Below, one piece after another: positions 32,720-53,513 of a stretch of 64,000 bases of DNA. The position numbers and the translations under genes were made by a program. A model generated the notes under the pieces. It was not told the origin of the DNA. It ran no database searches and worked only from the letters and a program-made list of their open reading frames with translations. The stretch is taken from the NCBI RefSeq assembly GCF_056746865.1, contig NZ_CM163382.1. One strand, 5' to 3'. Numbering within the stretch: the stretch's first letter is position 1; every line of letters starts with the position of its first letter.

Positions 32720-33028
32720 TTAGTGCTGAGGCGGGAACGGCGGCATAGTCAGGAAAGCATAATAAAGCGCTAACATCAGAATGACAGAGACAACACAGCA
32801 TGCAGCAACCAGGCGGGATGCTATAGATGGCCTTTTGAACATCAACCACAGGGCATAAGCAAGCCCGACACCGTTAAGTAAAGGTAAAAAAATCATTAGC
32901 CAGAGCCAACCCCAGGCAAGTACCCCCAGCCATCCCCCCACGACGATAAAAACAGGGATCAGCCAATTGGGGGTGAAGATCGCGAGTAATCCCAGCAATG
33001 CCAGACAAACTGGAATTAAATAATCCAT
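32720..33028 (-). CDS. Hypothetical small hydrophobic membrane protein (uncertain)
   Basis: 102-aa ORF that is Trp/Leu-rich with 2-3 predicted TM helices; no clear Shine-Dalgarno; lies between zntA and a REP cluster. Confidence 0.3.
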   Translation of the reverse strand: MDYLIPVCLALLGLLAIFTPNWLIPVFIVVGGWLGVLAWGWLWLMIFLPLLNGVGLAYALWLMFKRPSIASRLVAACCVVSVILMLALYYAFLTMPPFPPQH

Positions 33029-33052
33029 TTGTGCATTCCATTACACTTGCTT

Positions 33053-33190
33053 GCCGGATGCGGCGTAAACGCCTTATCCAGCCTACACAGGGCATCGAAC
33101 TCGTAGCCATGATAAAACGCGACAGCGTCGCATCAGGCATTGCGCACCGTATCGCCAGATGCAGCTTGAACGTTTTATCCGTCCTACAAA
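33053..33190. repeat. REP/BIME cluster between zntA and tusA
   Basis: GCCGGATGCGGCGTAAACGCCTTATCCAGCCTACA plus further REP-like palindromic units. Confidence 0.65.
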
Positions 33191-33242
33191 CCGGTTGCAA
33201 GCCGCAAAATTGAGCGCGATCGGTCCGCTAGCCTGATCCACC

Positions 33243-33488
33243 TTACCCCGATTTGCGAATCAAATAACGATAAGGCAGTTCATCCGTCTCTTTAGCAACC
33301 AGCTCATGTTCCATAAAGGTACAAAACCCAGGAATATCGCGGGTCGTCGCCGGATCGTCAGCAATAATCAGCAACGTTTCACCTGGCTGCATATTGCGCA
33401 CAGTTTTGCGCACCATCATTACTGGTTCCGGGCAGCGCAGGCCAAGCGCGTCGAGTGTGTGGTCAGGGCTGGAAAAGAGATCGGTCAT
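33243..33488 (-). CDS. tusA: Sulfur carrier protein TusA
   Basis: 81-aa ORF with the CPxP motif ([14 protein letters not shown]). Confidence 0.95.
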
Positions 33489-37462: not shown

Positions 37463-37785
37463 GAGGAAATGAAGAAACATTATTCAGACAATTAATTTAT
37501 AAAAACCATTCCTTAAGTCAAATATATATAAACGCCGAATAGCGATTAAATCCTTCTCAAAGAATGCACTGATAACATTGTGTTATTTTTATTGCCTCAT
37601 TTTTCTCACTCACTTATAGTTGGTCCCCGCTGGCAGTAATTTAGTCATTTCAGAAATTTTTACTCTGATGTGCACTTACTGACTTATCTCACAAGTAATT
37701 TTTTCGCTAAATAAAGAATAGTGATGCCAGCAATTACAGTTAAATCTTGCTTTACTCGTAAAAACAATACTTTAATGGGGTTCTA

Positions 37786-38175
37786 ATGAGACATTACATG
37801 AAATGGTTTGCGGCTATTGCTGTTGTGGGTGCTTTAGCGGGTTGCGCGCGTACTGCGCCAATTGATCAGGTTCACTCAACCGTCAGCGCTGGTCATACCC
37901 AGGAACAAGTGAAAAAAGCGATTCTGAAAGCTGGCGTTGAACGCAAATGGATTATGTCCGAAGCCGGACAAGGCGTAATTAAAGCACGTCAACAGTCACG
38001 CGATCATTCAGCCGAAATTCGCATTAACTACACGGCATCCAGCTACGATATCAATTATGAAAATAGCCAGAACCTACAAGCGTCAGGCGGACAAATTCAT
38101 AAAAACTACAATCGCTGGGTCCGCAATCTCGACAAAGATATTCAACTGAATTTGTCAGCGGGCGCAGATTTATAA
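37786..38175 (+). CDS. Small lipoprotein, first gene of the accessory cluster
   Basis: 129-aa ORF with a lipobox (LAGC); follows ~330 bp of AT-rich sequence and may correspond to the first ape gene (position only). Confidence 0.55.
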   Translation: MRHYMKWFAAIAVVGALAGCARTAPIDQVHSTVSAGHTQEQVKKAILKAGVERKWIMSEAGQGVIKARQQSRDHSAEIRINYTASSYDINYENSQNLQASGGQIHKNYNRWVRNLDKDIQLNLSAGADL

Positions 38176-38234
38176 TTCTTCCTAAAGTCGGGCCGCTGCG
38201 GTCCGATAATAATTTAATTCCCTCTTAACAGGTT

Positions 38235-39302
38235 GTGCCCAACATGTACGAACAGGATTCTCTTAGCGCACTGGATGCGATTACCGAAGCTCAACGCATT
38301 GCCTTTGCCCCTATGCTTTTTCAAACAGCACTCTGCCTACGTAATGCGGGTGTACTTTCATATCTGGATCGGCAAGGCAAACATGGCGCAACGCTGGCTG
38401 ATATCACCGAACATAGCCATATCAACGAATATGCGGCCAGCGTTCTGTTAGATATGGGCTTAAGCGGGCGAATTATTACCTGTAAAGAGGGAATGTATTA
38501 CCTGGCGAAAATCGGTCATTACCTCCTGCATGACACTATGACTCGCGTGAATATGGATTTCACCCAGGATGTCTGTTACCAGGGGCTCTTCTTCCTCGCC
38601 GATTCACTCAATGAAGGAAAACCGTCCGGGTTAAAAGTATTTGGCGACTGGTCGACGATATATCCGGCACTTTCACAATTACCAGACGCCGCTCGTGAAA
38701 GCTGGTTTGCGTTTGATCATTACTATTCAGATGGCGCATTTAACGCCGCACTGCCTTATGTATTCGCCAACAACCCCACAACATTGTACGATGTAGGCGG
38801 CAATACGGGTAAGTGGGCTTTGCGTTGCTGCAAATACAATGAAAACATAGCCGTGACGTTATTAGATCTGCCACAACAAATCGTACTAGCGAAAGAAAAT
38901 ATCGCGAATGCAGGTTTTTCTGATCGCATAGATTTCCATGCGGTGGATATGCTAAGCGATGCCCCATTACCGGGCGAGGCTGATATCTGGTGGATGAGCC
39001 AATTTTTAGACTGTTTTTCACCCGAACAAATAATTAGCATACTCAGCAAAATCGCCAGCGTAATGAAGCCTGGCGCAAAAGTTTGCATCATGGAGTTGTT
39101 CTGGGATGCGCAGCGGTTTGAAGCAGCATCATTTAGCCTGAACGCGTCCTCACTTTATTTTACCTGCATGGCAAACGGTAACAGCCGTTTCTATAGTGCA
39201 GAGAAATTTTACGACTATCTGAATAAAGCAGGATTCCAGGTAGCAGAGCGCCACGATAATTTAGGCGTTGGGCATACACTTTTGATATGCCAAAAGAAAT
39301 AA
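38235..39302 (+). CDS. Class I SAM-dependent methyltransferase (ApeB-like)
   Basis: 355-aa ORF with a glycine-rich SAM-binding motif (LYDVGGNTGKWA) and an acidic-loop motif (LLDLPQ). Confidence 0.75.
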   Translation: MPNMYEQDSLSALDAITEAQRIAFAPMLFQTALCLRNAGVLSYLDRQGKHGATLADITEHSHINEYAASVLLDMGLSGRIITCKEGMYYLAKIGHYLLHDTMTRVNMDFTQDVCYQGLFFLADSLNEGKPSGLKVFGDWSTIYPALSQLPDAARESWFAFDHYYSDGAFNAALPYVFANNPTTLYDVGGNTGKWALRCCKYNENIAVTLLDLPQQIVLAKENIANAGFSDRIDFHAVDMLSDAPLPGEADIWWMSQFLDCFSPEQIISILSKIASVMKPGAKVCIMELFWDAQRFEAASFSLNASSLYFTCMANGNSRFYSAEKFYDYLNKAGFQVAERHDNLGVGHTLLICQKK

Positions 39303-39342
39303 TCGTCACTTAATAATTTTGGTTTACCGCGGGCGCGCGTTG

Positions 39343-40065
39343 ATGAAATTTACATTAAATATTACCGACTGGCAGGCACTGGCGCCTGGACTTAGCGAAG
39401 CGCAGCAATGGCAAGCATGGTCGCGCCAGCCGTGGGCGATTGACCCTGCCGCGCCGTTGGCAAAATTAAGTGAACTGCCAATGATGACCGCCCGCCGCCT
39501 TAGTTCAGGCAGCAAACTGGCTGTTGAATGCGGTCTGGCAATGCTACGCCGCCATCAGCCAGACGCCGTTTTGTATACCAGTCGTCATGGCGAACTGGAG
39601 CGCAATTACCGCATTGTTCATGCACTGGCAACCGAACAGGCGCTTTCTCCGACCGACTTCGCGCTCTCCGTACACAACTCTTCCGTGGGTAACCTGACCA
39701 TTGCGGCCAAACAGCCGATAGTTTCGTCATCGCTTTCTGCTGGTCGCGACACTTTCCAGCAAGGTTTGTGTGAAGTGCTTAGCCTGTTACAAGCGGGATA
39801 CCAGCGCGTGTTGATGGTCGATTTTGACGGTTTTCTGCCCGAGTTTTATCACCCACAACTGCCATCAGAAATGCCGACCTGGCCGTACGCCGTCGCGCTG
39901 GTGATTGAATCTGGCGATGACTGGCAATGTGAAACGCAGTCAGCCATTGCGGGCAATGAAACATCACTGCCGCAAAGCATGTTGTTTTTACAGCATTATT
40001 TACAAAATGCAGACGCATTTTCACTGCCTGGCGAGCGCGTGCAATGGCGCTGGAGCCGCAGATGA
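39343..40065 (+). CDS. Ketosynthase-like protein lacking the active-site Cys (chain-length-factor-like, ApeC-like)
   Basis: About 240 aa resembling the N-terminal half of a KS; the position equivalent to the catalytic Cys reads HNSS rather than CSSS. Confidence 0.65.
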   Translation: MKFTLNITDWQALAPGLSEAQQWQAWSRQPWAIDPAAPLAKLSELPMMTARRLSSGSKLAVECGLAMLRRHQPDAVLYTSRHGELERNYRIVHALATEQALSPTDFALSVHNSSVGNLTIAAKQPIVSSSLSAGRDTFQQGLCEVLSLLQAGYQRVLMVDFDGFLPEFYHPQLPSEMPTWPYAVALVIESGDDWQCETQSAIAGNETSLPQSMLFLQHYLQNADAFSLPGERVQWRWSRR

Positions 40066-40883
40066 GTAAGCTGATGTCACGTCTGGAGTGGACCTGGCGA
40101 CTGGTCATGACCGGGTTATGTTTTGCCCTGTTTGGTCTCGGCGGCCTGCTGCTTTCTGTCGTGTGGTTTAACATATTGTTAGTTTTGGTGTGGGATACTT
40201 CCCGCCGCCGTCGTTTGGCGCGTCGCAGCATTGCCGCCAGTTTTCGCCTGTTTTTAACTGTCGCGAAAGGGCTTGGCGTGCTGGATTATCGTATTGATGG
40301 CGCTGAAATTTTACGTCAGGAACGCGGTTGCCTCGTCGTAGCCAATCATCCCACGCTGATCGATTACGTGCTGCTGGCGTCAGTCATGCCAGAAACTGAC
40401 TGCCTGGTGAAAAGCGCGCTGTTAAAAAATCCTTTTCTTGGCGGCGTCGTGCGGGCGGCAGATTATTTAATCAACAGCGAAGCTGAAACCCTGTTACCCC
40501 GCTGCCAACAGCGACTGGCACAGGGTGACACTATCCTGATTTTCCCCGAAGGCACGCGAACGAAGCCCGGTGAAAAAATGACGCTGCAGCGCGGGGCGGC
40601 GAATATTGCCGTGCGCTGTGCCAGCGATTTACGCATCGTGACGATCGGCTGTAGCGAGCATCTGCTGGATAAACAAAGTAAATGGTATGACGTTCCACCT
40701 GACCGGCCGTTTTTTACGGTTGAAGTCCATGGTCGGGTTGAAATCAATAAATTTTACGATGCAACTTCACAAGAACCGGCGCTGGCAGCAAGGCAGTTAA
40801 ACCGGCATCTTTTGCTTCTATTACAACAAGGTTGTTTACCTCTCTCAGGAATAAATAATGCAAGCGCTTTATCTGGAAATTAA
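40062..40883 (+). CDS. Lysophospholipid (PlsC-family) acyltransferase (ApeD-like)
   Basis: HX4D acyltransferase motif (VANHPTLIDY) plus FPEGTR; N-terminal TM helix; ATGA overlap with the upstream gene. Confidence 0.75.
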   Translation: MSKLMSRLEWTWRLVMTGLCFALFGLGGLLLSVVWFNILLVLVWDTSRRRRLARRSIAASFRLFLTVAKGLGVLDYRIDGAEILRQERGCLVVANHPTLIDYVLLASVMPETDCLVKSALLKNPFLGGVVRAADYLINSEAETLLPRCQQRLAQGDTILIFPEGTRTKPGEKMTLQRGAANIAVRCASDLRIVTIGCSEHLLDKQSKWYDVPPDRPFFTVEVHGRVEINKFYDATSQEPALAARQLNRHLLLLLQQGCLPLSGINNASALSGN

Positions 40884-41115
40884 AAACCTCATCATCAGCA
40901 CCCTCAATCTGGACGAGTTGACTCCTGATGATATCGAGACCGATGCGCCGCTGTTCGGCGACGGTTTAGGACTGGATTCCATCGATGCCCTGGAACTGGG
41001 ACTGGCAGTAAAAAATGAGTACGGCGTGGTGCTCTCAGCCGAAAGCGAAGAGATGCGTCAGCACTTTTTCTCCGTCGCCACTCTGGCCTCTTTCATTGCT
41101 GCGCAACGCGCCTGA
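40858..41115 (+). CDS. Acyl carrier protein 1
   Basis: 85-aa acidic protein with the phosphopantetheine-attachment motif GLGLDSIDALEL. Confidence 0.85.
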   Translation: MQALYLEIKNLIISTLNLDELTPDDIETDAPLFGDGLGLDSIDALELGLAVKNEYGVVLSAESEEMRQHFFSVATLASFIAAQRA

Positions 41116-41126
41116 GGAAAGCCATC

Positions 41127-41378
41127 ATGACAGAACAACAAACCGTCTATCAGGAAGTCTCAGCCCTGCTGGTTAAGCTGTTTGAAATCGATCCGCAGGA
41201 CATCAAACCTGAAGCGCGCCTGTACGAAGATCTGGAACTGGACAGCATCGACGCCGTTGACATGATTGTGCACCTGCAAAAGAAAACCGGTAAGAAAATC
41301 AAGCCGGAAGAGTTTAAAGCAGTGCGCACAGTTCAGGATGTCGTAGAGGCTGTAGAACGCCTGCTACAAGAAGCCTGA
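41127..41378 (+). CDS. Acyl carrier protein 2
   Basis: 83-aa acidic protein with the motif DLELDSIDAVDM. Confidence 0.85.
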   Translation: MTEQQTVYQEVSALLVKLFEIDPQDIKPEARLYEDLELDSIDAVDMIVHLQKKTGKKIKPEEFKAVRTVQDVVEAVERLLQEA

Positions 41379-41382
41379 TCTG

Positions 41383-41964
41383 ATGTCGGGCATTCGCTCG
41401 CTACCGATGATTAAGCTGCTGACTGGATTATTGCTGCTCGCCTGGCCGTTTGTGATTTGGTTTGGCCTGGCGCATAACGGCCTGCACTGGTTGTTGCCGC
41501 TAATAGCGTTGCTGCTATTGTTGCGCCTGCGCCAGACCCGTCGCCGGGCGGGGCCGCTACAAGCCGTCACACAAATCGTCGCTGTCGTGGGCATCGCATT
41601 GTGTGTCGCCAGCTTTCTGTTGAAAACGCACCAGCTACTGCTGTTTTACCCGGTAGTGGTTAACGCGATCATGCTGGCGGTTTTTGGCGGTTCGCTGTGG
41701 TCGACAATGCCGATAGTTGAGCGGCTGGCACGTTTGCAGGAGCCAGACCTCCCGGAAAAGGGCGTGCGCTATACCCGCCGTGTCACGCAAATCTGGTGCG
41801 GCTTTTTCATCATTAACGGCGGAATTGCCCTCTTTACCGCGCTTTATGGCGATATGTCGTTATGGACCGCCTGGAACGGCATGATTGCTTATTTTTTGAT
41901 GGGAACGTTAATGGCAGGTGAATGGCTGGTGCGCCGTCAGGTGATAAAAAGAGATCGCTCATGA
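41383..41964 (+). CDS. Integral membrane protein of unknown function (ApeG-like)
   Basis: 193-aa ORF with about 4 hydrophobic helices. Confidence 0.6.
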   Translation: MSGIRSLPMIKLLTGLLLLAWPFVIWFGLAHNGLHWLLPLIALLLLLRLRQTRRRAGPLQAVTQIVAVVGIALCVASFLLKTHQLLLFYPVVVNAIMLAVFGGSLWSTMPIVERLARLQEPDLPEKGVRYTRRVTQIWCGFFIINGGIALFTALYGDMSLWTAWNGMIAYFLMGTLMAGEWLVRRQVIKRDRS

Positions 41965-43322
41965 AGCAGACCTTACCGCTTGCACGCTGGCTGACTGCGC
42001 CACGCCCTGATGACACGCCCATTGCGTGGCTGGACGAAAGCTCGTGGACACTGGGCGATTTGCGTCACGATGTCGCGCAACTTATCTGCCGCTTGCAGCA
42101 ACAGCCGGGTGAACGCTGGGCGCTGTGCTTTGAGAACAGTTATTTGTTTATCGTTGCCCTGCTTGCCACGCTACACGCCGGAAAAACGCCGGTGCTTCCG
42201 GGGCATAACCGTGTCATCCAGCTTAATGAACAACGTGAACTGTTCGATGGTGTACTTAGCGACAGCGATCTTAACTGGCAAGGTTCATTGCTGTTGGTAG
42301 CAAGTTCCCCACAAGTCGCGACACAATCATTCACCTTTGCCGCTATAGCGCCAGACGCTTATATCGAGCTATTTACCTCCGGTTCTACGGGGCAGCCAAA
42401 GCGGGTAATTAAACCTGTTCATTTGCTGGACCGTGAAGCAGAACTGCTGGCTGAACGATTAGGCGCACGTCTTGCCGGATGTCGTGTCGTCGGTTCCGTA
42501 TTGCCGCAGCATCTGTACGGCCTGACTTTTCGCGTTTTCCTGCCAATGGCGCTGGGATTACCGCTGCACGCCGCCATGCTCTGGTATGTCGAACAGTTTG
42601 CCGCATTGAGTCACCAGCATCGCTATATCTTCATCAGCAGCCCGGCATTTTTGAAACGGCTGGATACCCAGCTTTCTCCGCCGCCCGTTCAGGTGCTTCT
42701 CTCTGCTGGCGGTGAGCTGCCGTGGCAGGACGTAAAACACACCGCGAGCTGGCTGCGCGTCTGGCCTGATGAAATCTACGGCAGCACGGAAACCGGCGTC
42801 ATTGCCTGGCGTTACCGCGAACAAGAGCAACGCCGCTGGCTGCCCTTTCCAGGTATGCACTTCCAGGCCGAAGGTGAAGCATTTCGTCTCTTTTCACCGC
42901 TGATAGCGGAAGATAACGGCCTGTTACTCGATGATCTCTTGCAGTTTAGCCAGGACGGTCAGTTCCATCTGATGGGGCGTCGTGGGCGCATCGTTAAGAT
43001 TGAAGAAAAACGTATTTCTCTGCAGGAAGTAGAACAACGTCTGCTGGCGCTGGACGGCATTCGCGAGGCGGCGGCAGTTCCCGTTACGCGCGGCGGGCGT
43101 CAGAGCATCGGCGTTTTGCTGGTGCTGGATGACGAAGCTCGCCTGCAATGGCAGAACGGCGGCGGGCATAGCCAGGAAATGACCTGGCGGCGATTACTGC
43201 GCCCGACGCTGGAGCCAGTTGCTATTCCGCGTTACTGGCGCGTTATTGATGAAATGCCAGTAAACAGTATGAACAAGCGTGTCTATGCGCAATTACAGGA
43301 GTTATTTCATGAAGCCCCATGA
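41961..43322 (+). CDS. Acyl-CoA/acyl-ACP synthetase (adenylate-forming ligase, ApeH-like)
   Basis: AMP-binding motif YIELFTSGSTGQPKRV; ATG at 41961 overlaps the upstream stop. Confidence 0.8.
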   Translation: MKQTLPLARWLTAPRPDDTPIAWLDESSWTLGDLRHDVAQLICRLQQQPGERWALCFENSYLFIVALLATLHAGKTPVLPGHNRVIQLNEQRELFDGVLSDSDLNWQGSLLLVASSPQVATQSFTFAAIAPDAYIELFTSGSTGQPKRVIKPVHLLDREAELLAERLGARLAGCRVVGSVLPQHLYGLTFRVFLPMALGLPLHAAMLWYVEQFAALSHQHRYIFISSPAFLKRLDTQLSPPPVQVLLSAGGELPWQDVKHTASWLRVWPDEIYGSTETGVIAWRYREQEQRRWLPFPGMHFQAEGEAFRLFSPLIAEDNGLLLDDLLQFSQDGQFHLMGRRGRIVKIEEKRISLQEVEQRLLALDGIREAAAVPVTRGGRQSIGVLLVLDDEARLQWQNGGGHSQEMTWRRLLRPTLEPVAIPRYWRVIDEMPVNSMNKRVYAQLQELFHEAP

Positions 43323-43662
43323 AATCGAGCGCCATCAGGCACAAGCGAATCACCTTGAGATTGTTTTGCATCTCAGGGCAGATCTGTTCTGGTTTCGCGG
43401 CCATTTTGCCGTGCAGCCGTTACTCCCAGGAGTTGCACAAATCGACTGGGCGATGAGCTACGCGCTCACTCTGCTCGCGCCTGGCTGGCGTTTTCACTCT
43501 ATTCAGAACATCAAATTCCAGTCCCCGTTGCTGCCGGACAACCGCGTCACGCTCACGCTTAACTGGCAGGAAGAACGCCAGATTCTGAGCTTTAGCTATC
43601 AGCGTCACGACGGTGACGCCCGCCACACCGCCAGTAGCGGGAAGATCCGCCTATGTCGGTAA
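43309..43662 (+). CDS. Hotdog-fold 3-hydroxyacyl-ACP dehydratase (FabZ/FabA-like)
   Basis: About 117 aa with FRGHFAVQPLLPGVAQID, a typical dehydratase motif. Confidence 0.7.
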   Translation: MKPHEIERHQAQANHLEIVLHLRADLFWFRGHFAVQPLLPGVAQIDWAMSYALTLLAPGWRFHSIQNIKFQSPLLPDNRVTLTLNWQEERQILSFSYQRHDGDARHTASSGKIRLCR

Positions 43663-45329
43663 ACTTTTCTCCCTGCGTGTTGATCCCCTGCTACAACCAC
43701 GGCGCGATGATGCCGGGCGTGCTGGCGCGTCTTAAGCCATTTAATCTGCCCTGTATTGTAGTGGATGACGGCAGCGATGCCGCCACGCAACAGCAACTGG
43801 ATAATCTGGTTGCCGAACAGCCTGGCGTGACCTTAATTCGCCTGGCAGAAAACGCAGGCAAAGGCGCGGCAGTGATGCGTGGCTTACAGGCAGCGGCAGA
43901 CGCGGGCTTCAGCCATGCGGTGCAGGTGGATGCTGACGGTCAGCACGCGATTGAAGACATCCCTAAACTGCTGGCACTCGCTGAACAGCAGCCTGCGGCG
44001 CTGATCTCCGGCCAGCCGATTTACGATGACTCCATCCCCCGCTCACGGCTGTACGGGCGCTGGGTCACCCACGTGTGGGTATGGATCGAAACGCTCTCCC
44101 TGCAACTGAAAGACAGTATGTGCGGCTTTCGCGTTTATCCGGTTGCGCCAACGCTGCAACTGGCAAAATACGCTACCATCGGCAAGCGGATGGATTTTGA
44201 CACCGAAGTGATGGTGCGCCTCTACTGGCAGGGAAATACCAGTTATTTCGTGCCGACCCGCGTCACCTATCCGCTGGACGGGCTTTCGCATTTTGATGCC
44301 CTGAAAGATAACGTCCGCATCTCGCTGATGCACACACGTCTGTTTTTCGGCATGTTGCCGCGTATTCCTTCACTGCTGATGCGCCACTCTTCCAGCCACT
44401 GGGCGCGGCAGAGCGAAGTGAAAGGGTTATGGGGAATGCGCCTGATGCTGCTGGTCTGGCGTCTGCTGGGAAGAACTGCGTTTACCGCGCTGCTTTACCC
44501 GGTGGTGGGCGTCTACTGGCTCACCGCTGCTCGTGCACGTAAAGCGTCGCAAGACTGGCTCGCCCGTGTGCGCCAACAACAACCACAGGCAGCAAAACTC
44601 AACAGCTATCAGCATTTTCTACGTTTCGGCAACGCCATGCTCGACAAAATCGCCAGCTGGCGCGGCGAGCTGCAACTCGGGCGTGATGTGCTGTTTGCAC
44701 CAGGCGCAGAAGCGGCACTTAACGTCAGCGATCCGCGCGGCAAATTGCTGCTGGCCTCGCATCTTGGCGATGTGGAAGTGTGCCGGGCGCTGGCAAAAAT
44801 TCAGGGCTACAAAACCATTAACGCGCTGGTGTTTAGCGAAAACGCCCAACGCTTTAAACAGATAATGCAGGAGATGGCCCCGCAGGCAGGCATCAACCTG
44901 CTCCCGGTAACAGATATCGGCCCGGAAACCGCCATCCTGCTGAAAGAGAAGCTGGATAACGGCGAATGGGTGGCGATTGTCGGTGACCGCATCGCCGTCA
45001 ACCCGCAACGCGGCGGCGACTGGCGCGTCTGCTGGAGTCCGTTTATGGGCCAGCCTGCGCCTTTCCCACAGGGGCCGTTTATTCTTGCGTCTATTTTGCG
45101 CTGCCCGGTGAATCTGATTTTCGCCCTGCGCCAGCACGGCAAGCTGCATATTCACTGCGAAACCTTTGCCGACCCGCTGCTGTTGCCGCGTGGCGAACGC
45201 CAGCAGGCGCTGCAAAACGCTATCGATCATTACGCCGCGCGTCTGGAACATTACGCGCTCCAGTCGCCCCTCGACTGGTTTAATTTTTTCGATTTCTGGC
45301 AACTGCCGGAAGTCCAGGACAAGGAGTAA
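43653..45329 (+). CDS. Bifunctional protein: N-terminal GT2 glycosyltransferase fused to a C-terminal LpxL/HtrB-like lipid acyltransferase domain (ApeJ-like)
   Basis: 558-aa ORF; N-terminus CVLIPCYNHG...VVDDGSDA (GT-A fold); C-terminal half has LASHLGDVEV and IVGDR motifs resembling lipid A late acyltransferases. Confidence 0.7.
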   Translation: MSVNFSPCVLIPCYNHGAMMPGVLARLKPFNLPCIVVDDGSDAATQQQLDNLVAEQPGVTLIRLAENAGKGAAVMRGLQAAADAGFSHAVQVDADGQHAIEDIPKLLALAEQQPAALISGQPIYDDSIPRSRLYGRWVTHVWVWIETLSLQLKDSMCGFRVYPVAPTLQLAKYATIGKRMDFDTEVMVRLYWQGNTSYFVPTRVTYPLDGLSHFDALKDNVRISLMHTRLFFGMLPRIPSLLMRHSSSHWARQSEVKGLWGMRLMLLVWRLLGRTAFTALLYPVVGVYWLTAARARKASQDWLARVRQQQPQAAKLNSYQHFLRFGNAMLDKIASWRGELQLGRDVLFAPGAEAALNVSDPRGKLLLASHLGDVEVCRALAKIQGYKTINALVFSENAQRFKQIMQEMAPQAGINLLPVTDIGPETAILLKEKLDNGEWVAIVGDRIAVNPQRGGDWRVCWSPFMGQPAPFPQGPFILASILRCPVNLIFALRQHGKLHIHCETFADPLLLPRGERQQALQNAIDHYAARLEHYALQSPLDWFNFFDFWQLPEVQDKE

Positions 45330-45332
45330 AGG

Positions 45333-45755
45333 GTGCTTAACGATCCCCGATTTACCGCTGAAGTCGAGCTGACCATTCCCTTTCACGACGTCGATATGAT
45401 GGGCGTGGCCTGGCACGGTAACTATTTTCGCTACTTTGAAGTGGCCCGCGAGGCGCTGCTCAACCAGTTCAATTACGGCTATCGGCAGATGAAAGAGTCC
45501 GGTTATTTGTGGCCAGTGGTCGATGCGCGGGTGAAATATCGCCACGCCCTCACCTTTGAGCAACGCATCCGCGTGCGTGCACATATCGAAGAGTTCGAAA
45601 ACCGTCTGCGGATTGGCTATCAGATTTTCGATGCCGAAACGGGCAAACGCGCCACCACCGGATACACCATTCAGGTCGCGGTCGACGAGCAAAGCCGCGA
45701 ACTGTGCTTTGTCAGCCCCGATATTTTGTTTGAACGCATGGGAGTCAAACCATGA
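45333..45755 (+). CDS. 4HBT/YbgC-like hotdog thioesterase
   Basis: 140-aa ORF with a GTG start and the motif FHDVDMMGVAWHGNYFRYFE. Confidence 0.75.
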   Translation: MLNDPRFTAEVELTIPFHDVDMMGVAWHGNYFRYFEVAREALLNQFNYGYRQMKESGYLWPVVDARVKYRHALTFEQRIRVRAHIEEFENRLRIGYQIFDAETGKRATTGYTIQVAVDEQSRELCFVSPDILFERMGVKP

Positions 45756-46357
45756 AATTTTTACCACTGCTGGCGCTGCTGATTAGCCCGTTTGTGAGCG
45801 CCCTGAACCTGGACGATCTTCAGCAACGCTTTACCGAACAGCCGGTGATCCGCGCTCATTTCGATCAAACCCGGACGATTAAAGATCTGCCGCAGCCGCT
45901 ACGATCTCAGGGCCAGATGTTGATCGCCCGCGACCAGGGGCTGTTGTGGGATCAAACCTCACCATTTCCCATGCAACTATTGCTGGACGATAAACGCATG
46001 GTGCAGGTGATCAACGGTCAGCCGCCGCAAATCATCACGGCAGAAAATAACCCGCAGATGTTCCAGTTTAACCACCTGCTGCGCGCGCTGTTCCAGGCCG
46101 ATCGCAAAGTGCTGGAACAAAATTTCCGCGTCGAATTTGCTGACAAAGGCGAAGGCCGCTGGACACTGCGCCTGACGCCGACCACCACGCCGCTGGATAA
46201 AATTTTCAACACCATCGATCTCGCCGGGCAAACCTATCTGGAGAGCATTCAGCTTAATGATAAACAGGGCGATCGCACCGATATCGCTCTTACCCAACAT
46301 CAACTGACGCCAGCGCAACTGACCGATGACGAACGCCAACGTTTTGCCGCCCAGTAA
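45752..46357 (+). CDS. LolA-like outer-membrane lipoprotein carrier protein
   Basis: 201-aa ORF with a signal peptide (MKFLPLLALLISPFVSA); LolA-like length and composition. Confidence 0.65.
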   Translation: MKFLPLLALLISPFVSALNLDDLQQRFTEQPVIRAHFDQTRTIKDLPQPLRSQGQMLIARDQGLLWDQTSPFPMQLLLDDKRMVQVINGQPPQIITAENNPQMFQFNHLLRALFQADRKVLEQNFRVEFADKGEGRWTLRLTPTTTPLDKIFNTIDLAGQTYLESIQLNDKQGDRTDIALTQHQLTPAQLTDDERQRFAAQ

Positions 46358-48644
46358 ACGCCCGGCGCTGTTATGGGGGATCGTCTGCCTGGTCATGGCG
46401 GCGGCGTTGCTGATCCTGTTGCCGCAATCACGACTGAACAGTAGCGTGCTGGCTATGTTACCCAAACAGGCGATGGGCGATATTCCTCCAGCGCTGAATG
46501 ACGGCTTTATGCAGCGTCTGGACCGCCAACTGGTGTGGCTGGTCAGCCCCGGTAAAGAGGCTAATCCCAGGGTGGCTCAGGAGTGGCTGACGCTGCTGCA
46601 AAAATCCGCTGCGCTCGGCGACGTTAAAGGGCCAATGGATGCCGCCAGCCAGCAGGCGTGGGGAGCGTTTTTCTGGCAGCACCGCAACGGCCTGGTTGAC
46701 CCCGACACCCGCGCGCGCCTGCAAAACGGCGGCGAAGCGCAGGCGCAGTGGATCCTCTCCCAGCTTTATTCTGCGTTCTCCGGGGTAAGCGGTAAGGAGC
46801 TGCAAAACGATCCGCTGATGTTAATGCGTGGCTCGCAGCTGGCGATGGCGAAAAACGGCCAGCGTTTGCGGCTGATGGACGGCTGGCTGGTGACGCAGGA
46901 TCCCCAGGGCAACTACTGGTATCTGCTGCACGGCGAACTGGCGGGATCGTCGTTTGATATGCAGCAAACCCACCAGCTCATCACGACCCTGAATACGCTG
47001 GAAAAGGATCTGAAAACGCGTTACCCGCAGGCGCAGTTGCTCTCGCGCGGCACGGTGTTTTACAGCGATTACGCCAGCCAACAGGCGAAGCAGGATATCT
47101 CCAACCTGGGCGTGGCAACGCTGCTGGGGGTGATATTACTGATTGTGGCGGTGTTCCGCTCTTTACGCCCATTGCTGCTTTGCGTGATTTCCATCGGCAT
47201 CGGCGCGCTGGCGGGAACGGTCGCCACCTTGTTGATTTTCGGCGAATTACACCTGATGACGCTGGTGATGAGCATGAGCGTTATCGGCATTTCCGCTGAC
47301 TACACGCTCTATTACCTCACCGAGCGGATGGTGCACGGCAATGACGTTTCGCCGTGGCAAAGCCTGGCGAAAGTGCGCAATGCCCTGCTGCTGGCGCTGC
47401 TCACCACCGTGGCGGCGTATCTGATTATGATGCTCGCCCCCTTCCCCGGCATTCGCCAGATGGCGATTTTTGCCGCCGTCGGGTTGAGCGCCTCCTGTCT
47501 GACCGTCCTGTTCTGGCATCCGTGGCTGTGCCGTGGCCTGCCGGTGCGTCCGGTTCCGGCGATGGCGCTGATGCTGCGCTGGCTGGCTGCGTGGCGGCGT
47601 AATAAAAAACTGTCGCTGGGTCTGCCCGTCGCGCTGGCGCTGTTTTCGCTGGCGGGGATGTCAATGCTGCGCGTCGACGACGATATCTCGCAGTTACAGG
47701 CGCTACCGCAGCATATTCTGGCCCAGGAGAAAGCCATTACCGCCCTGACCGGACAAAGCGTCGATCAAAAATGGTTTGTAGTTTACGGCGACTCTCCACA
47801 GCAAACATTGCGGCGGCTGGAGAAATTTACCGCCTCGCTGGAGAATGCGAAAAAAGAGGGGCTTATCAGCAACTACCGCACCATTCCGCTGAACTCCCTG
47901 GCGCGGCAGGAGGAAGATTTACATCTGCTGAAAACGGCTGCCCCGACAGTAACAAAAGCACTGCAAAATGCCGGGCTGGCGGCAGTGAATCCGGATCTCA
48001 ACGCCATGCCAGTGAAGGTCGATGAATGGCTGGCAAGCCCCGCCAGTGAAGGCTGGCGTCTGCTGTGGCTGACGCTGAAAAACGGCGAAAGCGGCGTACT
48101 GGTGCCGGTTGAAGGGGTTAAAAGTAGCGCGTTGTTGCAGGAAATCGCCAGCGATTACCCTGGCGGCATTGCCTGGGTTGATCGCAAAAGCACCTTTGAT
48201 GAGTTGTTCGCACTTTACCGCTACGTCTTAACCGGTTTGTTGCTGGTGGCGCTGGCGGTGATTGCCTGCGGCGCAGTGGCCCGCCTCGGCTGGCGCAAAG
48301 GGCTTATCAGCCTGGTGCCTTCGGTACTTTCGCTGGGCTGCGGTCTGGCAGTGCTGGCGATGAGCGGGCAGGCGGTGAATCTCTTTTCGCTACTGGCGCT
48401 GGTGCTGGTGCTTGGCATCGGCATCAATTACACGCTGTTTTTCAGTAATCCGCGCGGTACACCGTTAACTTCCCTACTGGCGATCACGCTGGCAATGCTC
48501 ACCACCTTGCTGGCGCTGGGAATGCTGGTATTCAGCGCCACCCAGGCCATCAGCAGTTTTGGCATTGTGCTGGTGAGCGGTATTTTCACCGCCTTCCTGC
48601 TTTCGCCGCTGGCTATGCCCGATAAAAAGAGAACAAAAAAATGA
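46326..48644 (+). CDS. MMPL/RND-superfamily exporter (start codon uncertain)
   Basis: 772-aa ORF with two blocks of about 6 TM helices separated by soluble domains. Confidence 0.75.
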   Translation: MTNANVLPPSKRPALLWGIVCLVMAAALLILLPQSRLNSSVLAMLPKQAMGDIPPALNDGFMQRLDRQLVWLVSPGKEANPRVAQEWLTLLQKSAALGDVKGPMDAASQQAWGAFFWQHRNGLVDPDTRARLQNGGEAQAQWILSQLYSAFSGVSGKELQNDPLMLMRGSQLAMAKNGQRLRLMDGWLVTQDPQGNYWYLLHGELAGSSFDMQQTHQLITTLNTLEKDLKTRYPQAQLLSRGTVFYSDYASQQAKQDISNLGVATLLGVILLIVAVFRSLRPLLLCVISIGIGALAGTVATLLIFGELHLMTLVMSMSVIGISADYTLYYLTERMVHGNDVSPWQSLAKVRNALLLALLTTVAAYLIMMLAPFPGIRQMAIFAAVGLSASCLTVLFWHPWLCRGLPVRPVPAMALMLRWLAAWRRNKKLSLGLPVALALFSLAGMSMLRVDDDISQLQALPQHILAQEKAITALTGQSVDQKWFVVYGDSPQQTLRRLEKFTASLENAKKEGLISNYRTIPLNSLARQEEDLHLLKTAAPTVTKALQNAGLAAVNPDLNAMPVKVDEWLASPASEGWRLLWLTLKNGESGVLVPVEGVKSSALLQEIASDYPGGIAWVDRKSTFDELFALYRYVLTGLLLVALAVIACGAVARLGWRKGLISLVPSVLSLGCGLAVLAMSGQAVNLFSLLALVLVLGIGINYTLFFSNPRGTPLTSLLAITLAMLTTLLALGMLVFSATQAISSFGIVLVSGIFTAFLLSPLAMPDKKRTKK

Positions 48645-49225
48645 TCAAACCCACATTCTGGCGAGCGTTCGCCCTGACCGCTACGCTTATCCTCACCGGC
48701 TGTAGCCACTCGCAACCGGAACAGGAAGGTCGCCCACAGGCGTGGCTGCAACCTGGCACGCGCATCACGCTGCCGGCACCAGGGATTTCGCCCGCCGTTA
48801 ATTCCCAGCAACTATTGAGCGGCAGCTTCAACGGCAAAACCCAGTCTCTGCTAGTGATGCTTAACGCCGACGACCAGAAAATCACCCTTGCCGGGCTGTC
48901 GTCGGTCGGCATTCGTCTGTTTCTGGTGACCTACGATGCGCAAGGGCTACGCGCCGAGCAATCCATCGTCGTCCCACAGTTGCCGCCCGCAAGTCAGGTG
49001 CTGGCTGACGTGATGCTTAGCCACTGGCCGATTAGCGCCTGGCAACCGCAACTCCCCGCTGGATGGACGCTTCGCGACAACGGTGACAAACGCGAACTGC
49101 GTAACGCCAGCGGCAAACTGGTCACGGAAATCACCTATCTGAATCGCCAGGGAAAACGCGTGCCAATCAGCATTGAACAGCATGTCTTTAAATACCACAT
49201 CACCATTCAATATTTAGGTGACTGA
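48641..49225 (+). CDS. Lipoprotein (DUF3261-like, possibly LolB-like)
   Basis: 194-aa ORF with a lipobox (LTGC). Confidence 0.65.
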   Translation: MIKPTFWRAFALTATLILTGCSHSQPEQEGRPQAWLQPGTRITLPAPGISPAVNSQQLLSGSFNGKTQSLLVMLNADDQKITLAGLSSVGIRLFLVTYDAQGLRAEQSIVVPQLPPASQVLADVMLSHWPISAWQPQLPAGWTLRDNGDKRELRNASGKLVTEITYLNRQGKRVPISIEQHVFKYHITIQYLGD

Positions 49226-50396
49226 TATGATTTACATTTCCGCCGTCGGCATGATCAACGCCCTGGGAAATAACCTTGACGATATCGCAGCCAACCTGAC
49301 TCGCGGTGTCGCTCCCGGCATGCGCCCGCGCGCAGGCTGGTTGCAGGGGCATCCGCAGGCGGTCCTGGCTGGCGTGGATGGCGAGCTTCCGGTTATCCCG
49401 GAAAAATTCGCTGCGCACCGCTCGCGCAACAATCAGATCCTGCTGGCGGCGCTGGCGCAGATCCAGCCGCAGGTTGATGACGCTATTGCGAAATATGGCC
49501 GCGAGCGCATCGCGATTGTGCTTGGCACCAGCACCTCCGGCCTGCATGAAGGCGACACGCACGTTAACCTGCGCACCCACGGGCAGCCGAGCACCACGTG
49601 GCACTATGCACAACAAGAGCTCGGCGATCCGTCGCGTTTTCTCAGCCACTGGCTGGCGCTCGACGGCCCAGCTTATACCCTTTCAACCGCCTGCTCCTCC
49701 AGTGCCAGAGCGATGATCAGCGGGCGCAGGCTTATCGAGGCGGGGCTGGTCGATGCCGCCATTGTGGGTGGTGCAGACACCCTGAGCCGAATGCCGATTA
49801 ACGGTTTTCACAGCCTCGAATCGCTCTCGCCAACCTTATGTCAGCCGTTTGGTCGTGACCGCGCGGGCATCACCATTGGCGAAGGTGCGGGGCTGATGCT
49901 GTTGACCCGCGAACCGCAGCCCATCGCCTTGCTGGGCGTCGGTGAATCGAGCGACGCTTATCATATTTCGGCCCCGCATCCACAGGGCGAAGGCGCAATT
50001 CGCGCCATTAACCAGGCGCTGGCTGATGCGCAGCTTACGCCGGATGAGGTGGGCTATATCAACCTGCACGGCACCGCCACACAACTCAACGACCAGATTG
50101 AATCGATGGTGGTAAACGCCCTGTTTGGCGAACGCGTACCGTGCAGCTCCACCAAACATTTGACCGGACACACGCTGGGCGCAGCGGGCATTACCGAAGC
50201 GGCAATCAGTATGTTGATCTTAGAGCGTGATTTACCGCTGCCCGCTCAGGACTTCAGCCTGTCGCCGCGCGATCCCACGCTGCCACCGTGCGGCATTATC
50301 GAACAACCACAGCCGCTGGCACGTCCGGTGATCCTGTCCAATTCCTTCGCCTTTGGCGGCAATAACGCCAGCATTCTGCTCGGGAGGGTTTCGTGA
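49218..50396 (+). CDS. Beta-ketoacyl-ACP synthase (KS, ApeO-like)
   Basis: Active-site Cys (LSTACSSSARAM), HGTAT, and NSFAFGGNNASIL. Confidence 0.85.
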   Translation: MTDMIYISAVGMINALGNNLDDIAANLTRGVAPGMRPRAGWLQGHPQAVLAGVDGELPVIPEKFAAHRSRNNQILLAALAQIQPQVDDAIAKYGRERIAIVLGTSTSGLHEGDTHVNLRTHGQPSTTWHYAQQELGDPSRFLSHWLALDGPAYTLSTACSSSARAMISGRRLIEAGLVDAAIVGGADTLSRMPINGFHSLESLSPTLCQPFGRDRAGITIGEGAGLMLLTREPQPIALLGVGESSDAYHISAPHPQGEGAIRAINQALADAQLTPDEVGYINLHGTATQLNDQIESMVVNALFGERVPCSSTKHLTGHTLGAAGITEAAISMLILERDLPLPAQDFSLSPRDPTLPPCGIIEQPQPLARPVILSNSFAFGGNNASILLGRVS

Positions 50397-50857
50397 GCCA
50401 CTATTTATCCCCCGGCGCTTATCTGCCCCACGACGCGCCCATGTTACTGCTGGAAGAAGTGGTGAGCGTCAGCGATGACAGCGCGGTGTGCCGTGTAACG
50501 GTCTCGCCCAGTGGCGTACTGGCACCGTTTCTCGACCCGGACGGCAATCTCCCTGGCTGGTTTGCCCTTGAATTGATGGCGCAAACCGTCGGCGTCTGGT
50601 CTGGCTGGCATCGCCACCAGCAGGGCAAAAACAGTATTGAGTTAGGGATGGTACTGGGCGCACGTGAATTGCTTTGCGCCGCTGGCATTCTGCCCGCAGG
50701 CCAGACGCTGACCATTACCGTCAAACTCCTGATGCAAGACGATCGCTTCGGCAGTTTTGAGTGCAGCATCAACAACGGCACGGCAACGGGCCGCATTAAC
50801 ACCTTCCAGCCGACCGCGGAAGAACTTACCACCCTGTTTCAACAAGGAGCGTCCTGA
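50393..50857 (+). CDS. Hotdog-fold dehydratase (FabA/FabZ-like, ApeP-like)
   Basis: 154-aa ORF overlapping the neighbouring genes; hotdog-like length and motif spacing. Confidence 0.6.
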   Translation: MSHYLSPGAYLPHDAPMLLLEEVVSVSDDSAVCRVTVSPSGVLAPFLDPDGNLPGWFALELMAQTVGVWSGWHRHQQGKNSIELGMVLGARELLCAAGILPAGQTLTITVKLLMQDDRFGSFECSINNGTATGRINTFQPTAEELTTLFQQGAS

Positions 50858-51588
50858 TGAGTCGTTCAGTTCTGGTTACTGGTGCCAGCAAAGGCATTGG
50901 TCGCGCCATCGCCTGCCAACTGGCGGCAGACGGCTTTAATATTGGCGTTCACTATCACCGTGACGCCACAGGCGCTCAGGAAACGCTAAATGCCATTGTC
51001 GCCAACGGGGGTAACGGGCGTTTGCTCAGTTTCGACGTCGCAAACCGCGAACAGTGTCGGGAAGTGCTGGAGCACGAAATCGCGCAAAACGGTGCCTGGT
51101 ACGGCGTGGTTAGTAACGCCGGGATCGCCCGCGATGCCGCTTTTCCGGCTTTAAGCGATGACGACTGGGATGCGGTGATCCACACCAATCTCGACAGTTT
51201 CTACAACGTTATTCAGCCGTGCATTATGCCGATGATCGGCACACGCCAGGGTGGACGCATCATCACGCTGTCCTCGGTTTCCGGCGTGATGGGCAATCGC
51301 GGACAGGTGAACTACAGCGCTGCCAAAGCCGGAATTATCGGCGCAACAAAAGCACTGGCTATCGAACTCGCGAAGCGCAAAATCACCGTCAACTGCATCG
51401 CGCCGGGGCTTATTGATACCGGGATGATCGAAATGGAAGAGAGCGCCCTGAAAGAGGCAATGTCGATGATCCCCATGAAACGCATGGGCCAGGCGGAAGA
51501 AGTTGCCGGGCTTGCCAGCTATTTAATGTCTGATATTGCGGGTTACGTCACCCGCCAGGTTATTTCCATCAACGGAGGGATGTTATGA
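50857..51588 (+). CDS. 3-oxoacyl-ACP reductase (SDR, FabG-like)
   Basis: VLVTGASKGIGRAIA Rossmann motif and YSAAKAG catalytic motif. Confidence 0.88.
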   Translation: MSRSVLVTGASKGIGRAIACQLAADGFNIGVHYHRDATGAQETLNAIVANGGNGRLLSFDVANREQCREVLEHEIAQNGAWYGVVSNAGIARDAAFPALSDDDWDAVIHTNLDSFYNVIQPCIMPMIGTRQGGRIITLSSVSGVMGNRGQVNYSAAKAGIIGATKALAIELAKRKITVNCIAPGLIDTGMIEMEESALKEAMSMIPMKRMGQAEEVAGLASYLMSDIAGYVTRQVISINGGML

Positions 51589-52814
51589 CACGTCGCGTAG
51601 TGATTACAGGAATGGGCGGCGTGACTGCCTTTGGTGAAAACTGGCAGGACGTTTCCGCGCGTCTGCTGGCGTATGAGAATGCAGTGCGCAAAATGCCGGA
51701 GTGGCAGGTCTACGATGGTCTGCACACCCTGCTTGGCGCGCCTGTTGATGATTTCACGCTACCGGAGCACTACACCCGCAAGCGTATCCGTGCGATGGGC
51801 CGCGTGTCGCAAATGTCGACCCGTGCCAGCGAGCTGGCGTTAGAGCAGGCAGGATTGATTGGCGATCCGATATTAACCAGCGGCGAAACGGGCATTGCGT
51901 ACGGTTCATCGACCGGCAGTACCGGTCCGGTGAGCGAATTTGCCACCATGCTGACGGAAAAGCACACCAATAACATCACCGGCACCACCTATGTACAGAT
52001 GATGCCGCACACCACCGCCGTTAATACCGGTCTGTTTTTCGGCCTGCGCGGGCGGGTGATCCCGACCTCCAGCGCCTGTACCTCCGGCAGCCAGGCGATC
52101 GGTTATGCGTGGGAAGCCATTCGCCACGGTTATCAAACGGTGATGGTTGCTGGTGGTGCCGAAGAGTTATGCCCTTCAGAAGCAGCGGTATTTGATACAC
52201 TTTTCGCCACCAGCCAGCACAATGATGCGCCGAAAACCACACCTTCACCGTTCGATGAAAACCGCGACGGGCTGGTGATTGGTGAAGGCGCAGGTACGCT
52301 GATTCTTGAAGAACTGGAGCACGCCAAAGCGCGCGGCGCGACCATTTACGGTGAAATCGTCGGCTTTGCGACTAACTGCGACGCGGCACATATTACCCAG
52401 CCTCAGCGTGAGACCATGCAATATTGTATGGAAAAATCGTTAAAAATCGCCGGGTTAAGTGCAAGTGATATCGGCTATATTTCGGCGCATGGTACGGCGA
52501 CCGATCGTGGTGATATGGCAGAAAGTCTGGCGACAGCAACCATTTACGGTGATAATGTGCCGCTCTCCTCGCTGAAAAGTTATTTTGGTCATACGCTTGG
52601 TGCCTGTGGCGCGCTCGAAGCCTGGATGAGTCTGCAAATGATGCGCGAAGGTTGGTTTGCGCCTACGCTAAACCTGAATAAACCAGACCCGAACTGTGGC
52701 GCGCTGGATTACATCATGCATGAAGCCCGCAAGGTTGATTGTGAGTTTTTGCAGAGTAACAACTTTGCCTTTGGCGGCATTAATACATCCATCATCATTA
52801 AACGTTGGCCCTGA
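51585..52814 (+). CDS. Beta-ketoacyl-ACP synthase (KS, ApeR-like)
   Basis: Active-site Cys (SSACTSGSQAIG), HGTAT and GHTLGACG. Confidence 0.88.
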   Translation: MTRRVVITGMGGVTAFGENWQDVSARLLAYENAVRKMPEWQVYDGLHTLLGAPVDDFTLPEHYTRKRIRAMGRVSQMSTRASELALEQAGLIGDPILTSGETGIAYGSSTGSTGPVSEFATMLTEKHTNNITGTTYVQMMPHTTAVNTGLFFGLRGRVIPTSSACTSGSQAIGYAWEAIRHGYQTVMVAGGAEELCPSEAAVFDTLFATSQHNDAPKTTPSPFDENRDGLVIGEGAGTLILEELEHAKARGATIYGEIVGFATNCDAAHITQPQRETMQYCMEKSLKIAGLSASDIGYISAHGTATDRGDMAESLATATIYGDNVPLSSLKSYFGHTLGACGALEAWMSLQMMREGWFAPTLNLNKPDPNCGALDYIMHEARKVDCEFLQSNNFAFGGINTSIIIKRWP

Positions 52815-52815
52815 T

Positions 52816-53403
52816 ATGTATCGGATAGTTCTGGGGAAAGTTTCGACCTTAAGCGCAGCTCCACTGCCACCGGCTTTACGCGATCAAGCACCGCAAGGTC
52901 CACGACGCGAACGCTGGCTGGCGGGGCGTGCATTACTTTCGCACACGCTTTCCCCGCTACCGGAGATCATCTATGGCGAACAAGGCAAACCGGCATTCGC
53001 GCCGGAAACGCCGCTATGGTTCAACTTAAGCCATAGCGGTGACGATATCGCCCTGCTGTTGAGCGATGAAGGCGAAGTCGGCTGCGATATCGAAGTGATT
53101 CGCCCGCGCGCCAACTGGCGCTGGCTGGCGAACGCCGTGTTCAGCCTCGGGGAACACGCTGAGATGGACGCCGTGCATCCCGATCAGCAACTGGAAATGT
53201 TCTGGCGCATCTGGACGCGCAAAGAAGCCATCGTTAAACAGCGTGGCGGCAGCGCCTGGCAAATCGTCAGCGTAGACAGCACCTATCACTCATCACTGTC
53301 AGTCAGCCATTGTCAGCTAGAAAATTTAAGCCTGGCGATCTGCACCCCTACCCCCTTTACGCTCTCCGCCGACAGTGTGCAATGGATCGATTCAGTTAAC
53401 TGA
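52816..53403 (+). CDS. acpT: 4'-phosphopantetheinyl transferase (holo-ACP synthase 2)
   Basis: Internal start MYRIVLGKVSTLSAAPLPPALRD gives 195 aa; the ATG lies 1 bp after the stop of the upstream KS gene. Confidence 0.88.
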   Translation: MYRIVLGKVSTLSAAPLPPALRDQAPQGPRRERWLAGRALLSHTLSPLPEIIYGEQGKPAFAPETPLWFNLSHSGDDIALLLSDEGEVGCDIEVIRPRANWRWLANAVFSLGEHAEMDAVHPDQQLEMFWRIWTRKEAIVKQRGGSAWQIVSVDSTYHSSLSVSHCQLENLSLAICTPTPFTLSADSVQWIDSVN

Positions 53404-53448
53404 TCCGCCCACCCGACTGCCCATCTATTGATCCAGAACAGGTAATCA

Positions 53449-53476
53449 GTATGACGAATACTTAAAATCGTCATAC
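53449..53476 (+). promoter_or_regulatory. NikR operator in the nikA promoter
   Basis: GTATGA-N16-TCATAC dyad, 38 bp upstream of the nikA ATG. Confidence 0.85.
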
Positions 53477-53513
53477 TTATTTCCGCCATCTATTTTAATC
53501 CATTGGGGTTACC

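Follow-up and report, generated by a model that had tools for sequence, protein, structure and literature searches.

A half-size, cysteine-less protein as the probable ketosynthase partner in an Escherichia coli aryl polyene gene cluster

Aryl polyenes (APEs) are yellow membrane pigments made by an uncommon kind of type II polyketide synthase (PKS) that mixes fatty acid synthase (FAS)-like and PKS-like parts (PMC8253772, PMC9006962). For the pathway reconstituted from Xenorhabdus doucetiae, the account of Grammbitter et al. 2019 given in PMC8253772 has ApeO as the elongating ketosynthase (KS) in a heterocomplex with the chain-length factor (CLF) ApeC, with ApeQ and ApeI/ApeP reducing and dehydrating the growing chain and ApeI and ApeP reported to form a heterocomplex of their own. 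ApeO:ApeC has been crystallised as a KS:CLF heterodimer (6QSP and 7F28; PMC8358021). Here we describe such a locus in Escherichia coli, in a 64,000-nucleotide stretch of RefSeq assembly GCF_056746865.1 (contig NZ_CM163382.1), referred to below as the window. Eighteen co-directional and often overlapping genes, apeA to apeR (37798..52814, + strand), lie between yhhT (end 37406) and acpT (start 52816), and are almost certainly the E. coli APE gene cluster, with a half-size ApeC that lacks the catalytic Cys serving as KS partner and CLF. This combination of KS and Cys-less partner is real, far beyond chance, and already known, its substance having been published between 2014 and 2021 and the RefSeq product name saying the same; our additions to the literature are small, being a corrected register for the missing Cys (G134/R135) and a mosaic structure across apeG, apeH and apeI.

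A first-pass annotation, made from the letters of the window alone, had picked out ApeC as a 240-residue KS-like protein, and it is an ATG open reading frame (ORF) with the same coordinates in RefSeq. It covers Pfam PF13723 completely (Ketoacyl-synt_2; HMM positions 1-223 of 223, E = 4e-67), whereas no NCBIfam model matches it, and it aligns over residues 1-239 with X. doucetiae ApeC (PDB 6QSP chain B, E = 5.9e-93) and also with ApeC of Acinetobacter baumannii (7F28_A). An AlphaFold model built with 118 diverse relatives (pLDDT 96.6) superposes on 6qsp_B with a TM-score of 0.95 and an rmsd of 1.4 Å, the next structural matches being 7f28_A, the ishigamide CLF Iga12 (6KXF, E = 9e-9), FabF proteins, and the actinorhodin CLF 1tqy_B (E = 3e-7), in keeping with a KS/CLF fold. 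Both the MAFFT alignment described below and the extent of the Pfam match indicate that ApeC lacks the entire C-terminal thiolase half carrying the two catalytic His residues, which agrees with the crystallographic description, in which ApeC has a single domain of thiolase fold (PMC8358021).

For the PF13723 family there were 2108 representative-cluster matches, and we drew a 119-sequence ApeC family from the representative search at 50% identity; another homologue listing gave close relatives only (at least 72% identity) among the 120 listed, so that the diversity came from the representative-cluster search. Residues R51, R52, S102, P103, F106, V110, and N112 are invariant across the family and H111 is nearly so, and the window protein has them all. 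R51 and R52 correspond to Arg30 and Arg31 of A. baumannii ApeC, which Lee et al. proposed as the site at which acyl carrier proteins (ACPs) dock (PMC8358021), and they may be docking arginines here too. ApeC is a member of the ApeC/PF13723 family, and not of the classical CLF family, and is CLF-like in its working.

Two further features of ApeC were observed. A 'SRHGEL' motif (residues 80-85) is strongly conserved in the family, with S80 in at least 90% of the sequences. Its counterpart in FabF is the 106-113 loop, including Ile108, which we take to line the bottom of the acyl pocket, and a weak BLASTP pairing (E = 0.17) links it to 'xHGTxT', a His motif in the C-terminal half of the KS. At the 5′ end, a mechanical ORF call starts apeC at TTG 39319 and the annotation at ATG 39343; the first residue of the crystallised X. 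doucetiae ApeC corresponds to 39343, in favour of the annotated start.

Although ApeC is indeed Cys-less, the motif HNSS (H111-S114), which the first-pass annotation had placed where the catalytic Cys would be, is not at that position. We determined the register by MAFFT L-INS-i alignment of three ApeC proteins with ApeO, ApeR, and the K-12 FabF and FabB, by hhalign, by an ungapped profile-profile offset scan, and from AlphaFold secondary structure. In the MAFFT alignment the ApeC segment 'SPTDFALSVHNSSVGNLTI' pairs with a FabF helix segment, and FabF Cys163 faces ApeC R135 in 'SLSAGRDTF'; MAFFT, hhalign, and the offset scan agree that S102-P103...H111-N112...G116...I120 faces the FabF helix that precedes the active-site strand. 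The same ungapped register (ApeC 100-152 with FabF 129-181) was obtained by hhalign of the 119-sequence family against a six-sequence KS alignment, albeit with a weak score (probability 5%, pairwise E = 0.007) because the KS profile held only six sequences, and we did not rely on it alone. Across all offsets, the scan of ApeC 98-160 is maximal at +29 with a score of -0.9 (mean -51.3, sd 10.1; z about +5), and with ApeC 125-160 alone the same offset scores 3.2 against -9.8 for the runner-up. Offsets placing H111/N112 opposite the Cys were rejected, as +52 scores -40.4 (z about +1) and +53 scores -56.9 (z about -0.6). In the AlphaFold model the strand-to-helix elbow, the thiolase nucleophile site, falls between a strand at 127-131 and a helix at 134-150, and H111 and N112 fall in the loop that joins helix 103-107 to helix 113-122, where no strand precedes them.

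Because the alignments, the offset scan, and the modelled elbow converge, the Cys-equivalent would be G134/R135, give or take one residue, in 'SAGRDT' and about 23 residues past HNSS. Position 135 is variable in the family (E in 19 sequences, A in 19, K in 10, R in 9, Q in 9, and others), with Cys in none of the 119, and Cys is found at positions 132-134 in only 2-3 of the 119. A conserved Cys near the site was considered and rejected; A. baumannii ApeC has one, in 'SLSCSW', but it is a rarity at 132-134 and absent at 135. BLASTP of ApeC against ApeO, ApeR, FabF, and FabB was set aside for the register, as it gave insignificant local matches (best E = 0.17), and profile methods were used instead. 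The alignment of the KS-type proteins thus bears out that the small protein is KS-related and has no conserved Cys at the site, and it is the HNSS register that falls. Since the V, H, and N of SVHN are fixed or nearly fixed while position 135 varies, SVHN is a family signature and not a relic of the active site.

As the first-pass annotation stated, the two full-length ketosynthases keep their catalytic Cys. ApeO matches 6QSP chain A (E = 1.3e-176), and the matches of ApeR are 4EWG (E = 9e-165) and 7F27, the A. baumannii ApeR (E = 7.4e-158). Aligned with E. coli FabF and FabB, the catalytic sets are C159/H284/K313/H318/F379 in ApeO (counting begins at the GTG at 49218, and numbers based on the RefSeq start are lower by 3) and C165/H302/K331/H336/F396 in ApeR, and both proteins therefore retain the complete elongating-KS set of Cys-His-His triad, active-site Lys, and gating Phe. 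The GTG at 49218 is the apeO start of the mechanical ORF call, and the annotated start is at 49227.

The other APE components are present as well. Beside the ApeO-type KS and the PF13723 half-size CLF, the locus has the ApeR KS, two tandem free-standing ACPs, a FabG2-type reductase, the hot-dog dehydratases ApeI and ApeP (both FabZ-like), the AMP-binding ligase ApeH, acyltransferases, and a LolA/MMPL/DUF3261 export set, in synteny with characterised clusters; the discrete ACPs, reductase, dehydratases, and ligase of the first-pass annotation are all accounted for. No enoyl-reductase-family gene is found among the 18 annotated ape genes, nor is an ammonia lyase, a chorismatase, or a chorismate lyase. 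Every one of the 18 ORFs is intact. What the window's own sequence shows is the set of genes, their homologies, the catalytic residues, the missing Cys, and the fold. RefSeq names and coordinates (Table 1) were taken from E. coli strain 2017C-4173W12, whose annotation maps onto the window with a single nucleotide difference (position 38849) across 37700..53500, and the gene order is that tabulated for E. coli CFT073 (PMC8253772).

Table 1. Genes of the ape cluster and acpT in the window
Gene	Coordinates	Strand	Assignment and basis
apeA	37798..38175	+	Small lipoprotein, 125 aa; RefSeq CDS; first in CFT073 order; 64% identity to CFT073 ApeA
apeB	38244..39302	+	RefSeq 'methyltransferase', SAM-dependent; X. 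doucetiae ortholog has PF00891; putative aryl head-group methylation (PMC8253772)
apeC	39343..40065	+	240-aa half-size Cys-less chain-length factor, predicted ApeO partner; RefSeq 'beta-ketoacyl synthase chain length factor'
apeD	40062..40883	+	Lysophospholipid acyltransferase family (RefSeq); putative APE attachment to lipid anchor (PMC8253772)
apeE	40858..41115	+	ACP1, DSI motif; NCBIfam NF006617, 90 bits (cut-off 70); predicted 4-hydroxybenzoyl starter carrier (PMC8253772, PMC12624758)
apeF	41127..41378	+	ACP2; NCBIfam NF003757, 146 bits (cut-off 65); presumed malonyl carrier
apeG	41383..41964	+	Membrane protein, COG4648; RefSeq
apeH	41961..43322	+	AMP-binding acyl-ACP synthetase, predicted aryl-starter activation (PMC8253772); RefSeq 'AMP-binding protein'; top NCBIfam matches are adenylate-forming ligases, every one below cut-off
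apeI	43309..43662	+	Hot-dog dehydratase subunit, predicted ApeP partner; weak FabZ matches; ortholog has PF22818 ApeI-like; RefSeq FabZ-family dehydratase
apeJ	43653..45329	+	Glycosyltransferase family 2 / acyltransferase; RefSeq; table in PMC8253772
apeK	45333..45755	+	4HBT-type thioesterase; TIGR00051 YbgC/FadM, 61 bits, slightly below cut-off 68.7; RefSeq acyl-CoA thioesterase
apeL	45752..46357	+	LolA-like carrier; RefSeq; PMC8253772
apeM	46326..48644	+	MMPL/RND exporter; RefSeq
apeN	48641..49225	+	DUF3261 LolB-like lipoprotein; RefSeq
apeO	49227..50396	+	Catalytic elongating ketosynthase, predicted KS-alpha of ApeO:ApeC; NF006618, 558 bits (cut-off 407)
apeP	50393..50857	+	Hot-dog dehydratase; RefSeq 'ApeP family dehydratase'; weak FabZ matches
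apeQ	50857..51588	+	3-ketoacyl-ACP reductase FabG2; TIGR01831, 474 bits (cut-off 339)
apeR	51585..52814	+	Homodimeric FabB/FabF-like ketosynthase, putative early elongation/initiation phase; NF006587, 777 bits (cut-off 470)
acpT	52816..53403	+	4'-Phosphopantetheinyl transferase, predicted to activate ApeE and ApeF; RefSeq

Among described systems, the CFT073 cluster (c1204-c1186, PMC8253772) agrees with that of the window in all 18 genes and in their order, with ApeC 95%, ApeO 98%, and ApeR 99% identical, although the CFT073 cluster is in an integrase and insertion sequence (IS) island rather than at yhhT-acpT, and acpT is directly downstream only in the window. The X. doucetiae system shares the gene order from apeA to apeO, and its ApeC is 59-60% identical over the full length with SVHN and R51/R52 in common; its ApeH is only 49% identical, however, and the structures and assays belong to the X. 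doucetiae proteins and not to those of E. coli. A. baumannii (7F28, 7F27; PMC8358021) also has a KS:CLF pair together with a homodimeric KS, but its ApeC, a 204-aa protein, is missing ~20 residues at the N terminus and has about 25% identity. The ishigamide pair Iga11-Iga12 is likewise part of a highly reducing, polyene-forming type II PKS and includes the next-best structural match to ApeC, yet Iga12 is a full-length CLF of ~360 aa, ishigamide has no aryl starter, and the source is an actinomycete.

The KS-CLF logic of type II PKSs that the first-pass annotation had proposed is borne out through the orthologs in 6QSP and 7F28, but the likeness to a classical KS-beta is a loose one. Actinorhodin KS-alpha/KS-beta (1TQY) similarly joins a catalytic KS to a paralogue that has no Cys and forms a boundary of the substrate tunnel. 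A classical CLF, however, is ~400 aa with both thiolase halves and has Gln at the Cys position, whereas the window ApeC is the N-terminal half only and has Arg135 at a position that varies in its family. A classical CLF gene also adjoins its KS gene and is translationally coupled to it (PMC9006962), whereas 9.2 kb and 11 genes separate apeC from apeO downstream.

By orthology with the reconstituted systems, we propose the following pathway. AcpT would phosphopantetheinylate both ACPs, ApeE and ApeF, as De Lay and Cronan 2006, cited in PMC8253772, found for their O157:H7 homologues. ApeH would adenylate 4-hydroxybenzoate, made from chorismate by UbiC, and load it onto ApeE; in the orthologous clusters, according to the account in PMC8253772, 4-hydroxybenzoate comes from UbiC and ubiquinone biosynthesis, ApeH adenylates it and loads it directly on the ACP, and no dedicated aryl-starter gene is in the cluster, much as the first-pass annotation had supposed in deriving the starter from primary metabolism by way of the ligase. 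Malonyl units probably arrive mainly on ApeF, with the help of the housekeeping FabD, and decarboxylative Claisen condensations would be carried out by an ApeR homodimer and the ApeO:ApeC heterodimer, with ApeR acting best on short intermediates and ApeO:ApeC extending the chain to full length. The heterodimer itself we infer from 6QSP and 7F28. In it ApeC is predicted to be a non-catalytic half-size KS paralogue that replaces the second KS subunit and seals the substrate tunnel on one side, and chain-length control and starter choice are likewise expected to follow the orthologs. ApeQ would reduce each beta-keto group and ApeI:ApeP dehydrate the product, and with no enoyl reductase a conjugated polyene would grow. 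ApeB may then methylate the head group, ApeD and ApeJ may join the product to a lipid anchor, and ApeL, ApeM, and ApeN may export it to the outer membrane. A 4-hydroxyphenyl polyene pigment is predicted for the window allele from its CFT073 ortholog (PMC8253772).

Several points weigh against this reading of the locus. With the CFT073 proteins, which were characterised genetically, ApeH shares only 67% and ApeI only 72% identity, and with the biochemically characterised X. doucetiae enzyme ApeH shares 49%, so that starter specificity is an extrapolation; and native ape expression in E. coli is reported to be low and stress-induced. Published data also disagree on the need for ApeR. The first-pass annotation made the second KS a candidate initiation enzyme, and this is one published view, PMC8253772 summarising Grammbitter et al. 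2019 as having reported that initiation requires ApeR. It is contested by data from A. baumannii, where ApeO-ApeC alone gives the full-length polyene and ApeR makes shorter products and raises throughput (Lee et al., PMC8358021), and by a CFT073 apeR deletion that is still pigmented (PMC8253772).

We weighed three other explanations. The locus could be a second, ordinary type II FAS making saturated or unsaturated acyl chains, as O-island 138, the ape locus of O157:H7, was first annotated, with the small protein a decayed KS fragment. ApeR, ApeQ, and the ACPs do score well against FabF/FabB, FabG, and ACP models, and there is no cyclase or aromatase in the cluster. We nevertheless give this next to no credence, as the small protein is one of a conserved family with invariant motifs, ApeC has been crystallised as a stable partner of ApeO, and the cluster has no enoyl reductase but does have a ligase of the aryl-acid type, a methyltransferase, and Lol/MMPL export genes; moreover, pigment is made by the orthologous CFT073 cluster, most of whose proteins are 94-100% identical, and the aryl polyene was detected on expression (PMC8253772). 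It is also highly improbable that ApeC acts like a classical KS-beta or KSQ, in which case a pseudo-active site, whether HNSS or another, would prime the chain by decarboxylating malonyl-ACP. Conservation of H111 and N112 would suit such a role, and classical CLFs and KSQ domains with Gln in place of Cys can reportedly decarboxylate malonyl-ACP, a finding ascribed to Bisang et al. in 1999. However, Gln occupies position 135 in just nine family members, H111 and N112 are away from the nucleophile elbow, and an aryl-acid starter loaded by ApeH would make decarboxylative priming unnecessary. ApeC also lacks the C-terminal half bearing the two His residues that decarboxylation needs (PMC8358021).

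The third explanation is that the cluster of the window strain is a silent relic whose ORFs are unbroken but yield no product under any natural condition. Wild-type CFT073 expresses its cluster weakly and shows pigment mainly when expression is ectopic, and loss of the cluster has had no obvious cost for K-12. Yet not one of the 18 ORFs is broken, the cluster is conserved at 95-100% identity across 824 complete genomes, and oxidative stress induces ape transcripts in CFT073, and we regard a relic as improbable. An APE cluster with ApeC as the half-size partner of ApeO is the reading that we retain. An unaided reading of the raw sequence had reached the KS:CLF logic, an early-phase KS, and a starter from primary metabolism, while naming the wrong residues for the lost active site.

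E. coli has two types of this cluster. Window and CFT073-type DNA are 94-99% identical outside two segments, one at ~41,500-43,700 (the apeG 3′ end and all of apeH and apeI) with 63-77% identity and the other at 37,800-38,400 (apeA and the apeB 5′ end) with ~68-70%. Protein identities follow suit, at 67% for ApeH, 72% for ApeI, 82% for ApeG, and 64% for ApeA, with the others at 94-100%. Among complete E. coli genomes the apeH-apeI segment is of the window type, shared with O157:H7, in 569 and of the ~68% type, that of CFT073, in 256. We consider it unlikely that the cluster of the yhhT-acpT type differs from that of CFT073 in its choice of aryl starter or in its treatment of early intermediates; X. 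doucetiae ApeH has 49% identity to either of the two ApeH alleles, and this comparison gives no pointer to specificity. The CFT073 locus adjoins a tyrosine integrase, IS1/IS66 fragments, and several pseudogenes, and in strain 04-00955 the second E. coli APE locus is also in a genomic island, beside a cdiBA contact-dependent inhibition system and IS remnants.

The APE cluster was found in 824 of 5426 complete E. coli genomes, chromosomal in every case, and O157:H7 strains have the same kind of locus as the window at ~96.6% identity. Upstream in the window are gntU...livJ, rpoH, ftsYEX, zntA, tusA, yhhQ, dcrB, yhhS, and yhhT, and downstream are acpT, nikABCDER, and then a phosphotransferase system/kinase/aldolase block. 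As acpT begins 2 nt past the apeR stop, it is probably co-transcribed with the cluster. K-12 has no APE cluster; its homology ends at window position 37402, the end of yhhT, and restarts at 52796, such that the last ~19 nt of apeR are kept ahead of acpT. Because this apeR 3′ remnant persists before K-12 acpT, the pattern fits deletion of the cluster in the K-12 lineage rather than insertion in the window strain, and the title of De Lay and Cronan's paper implies such a deletion. Elsewhere in the window, the zntA-tusA gap (32683-33251) is ~570 nt compared with ~115 nt in K-12, and the extra sequence encodes a 102-aa 'hypothetical protein' (WP_000385056.1; ORF 32720..33028, - strand). A low-GC region (0.43-0.46 versus ~0.53 in its surroundings) at 4000-10000 contains yhhY, an 'Hcp1 family type VI secretion system effector' (tssD, at the yhhZ position), yrhA, a yrhD fragment, and yrhB.

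APE clusters have been described as more widespread than any other bacterial biosynthetic gene cluster family, and in E. coli APE protects against oxidative stress and promotes biofilm formation (PMC8253772, PMC12871727). Should the divergent apeH-apeI segment change starter choice or the handling of early intermediates, the yhhT-acpT-type cluster would make a distinct aryl polyene.

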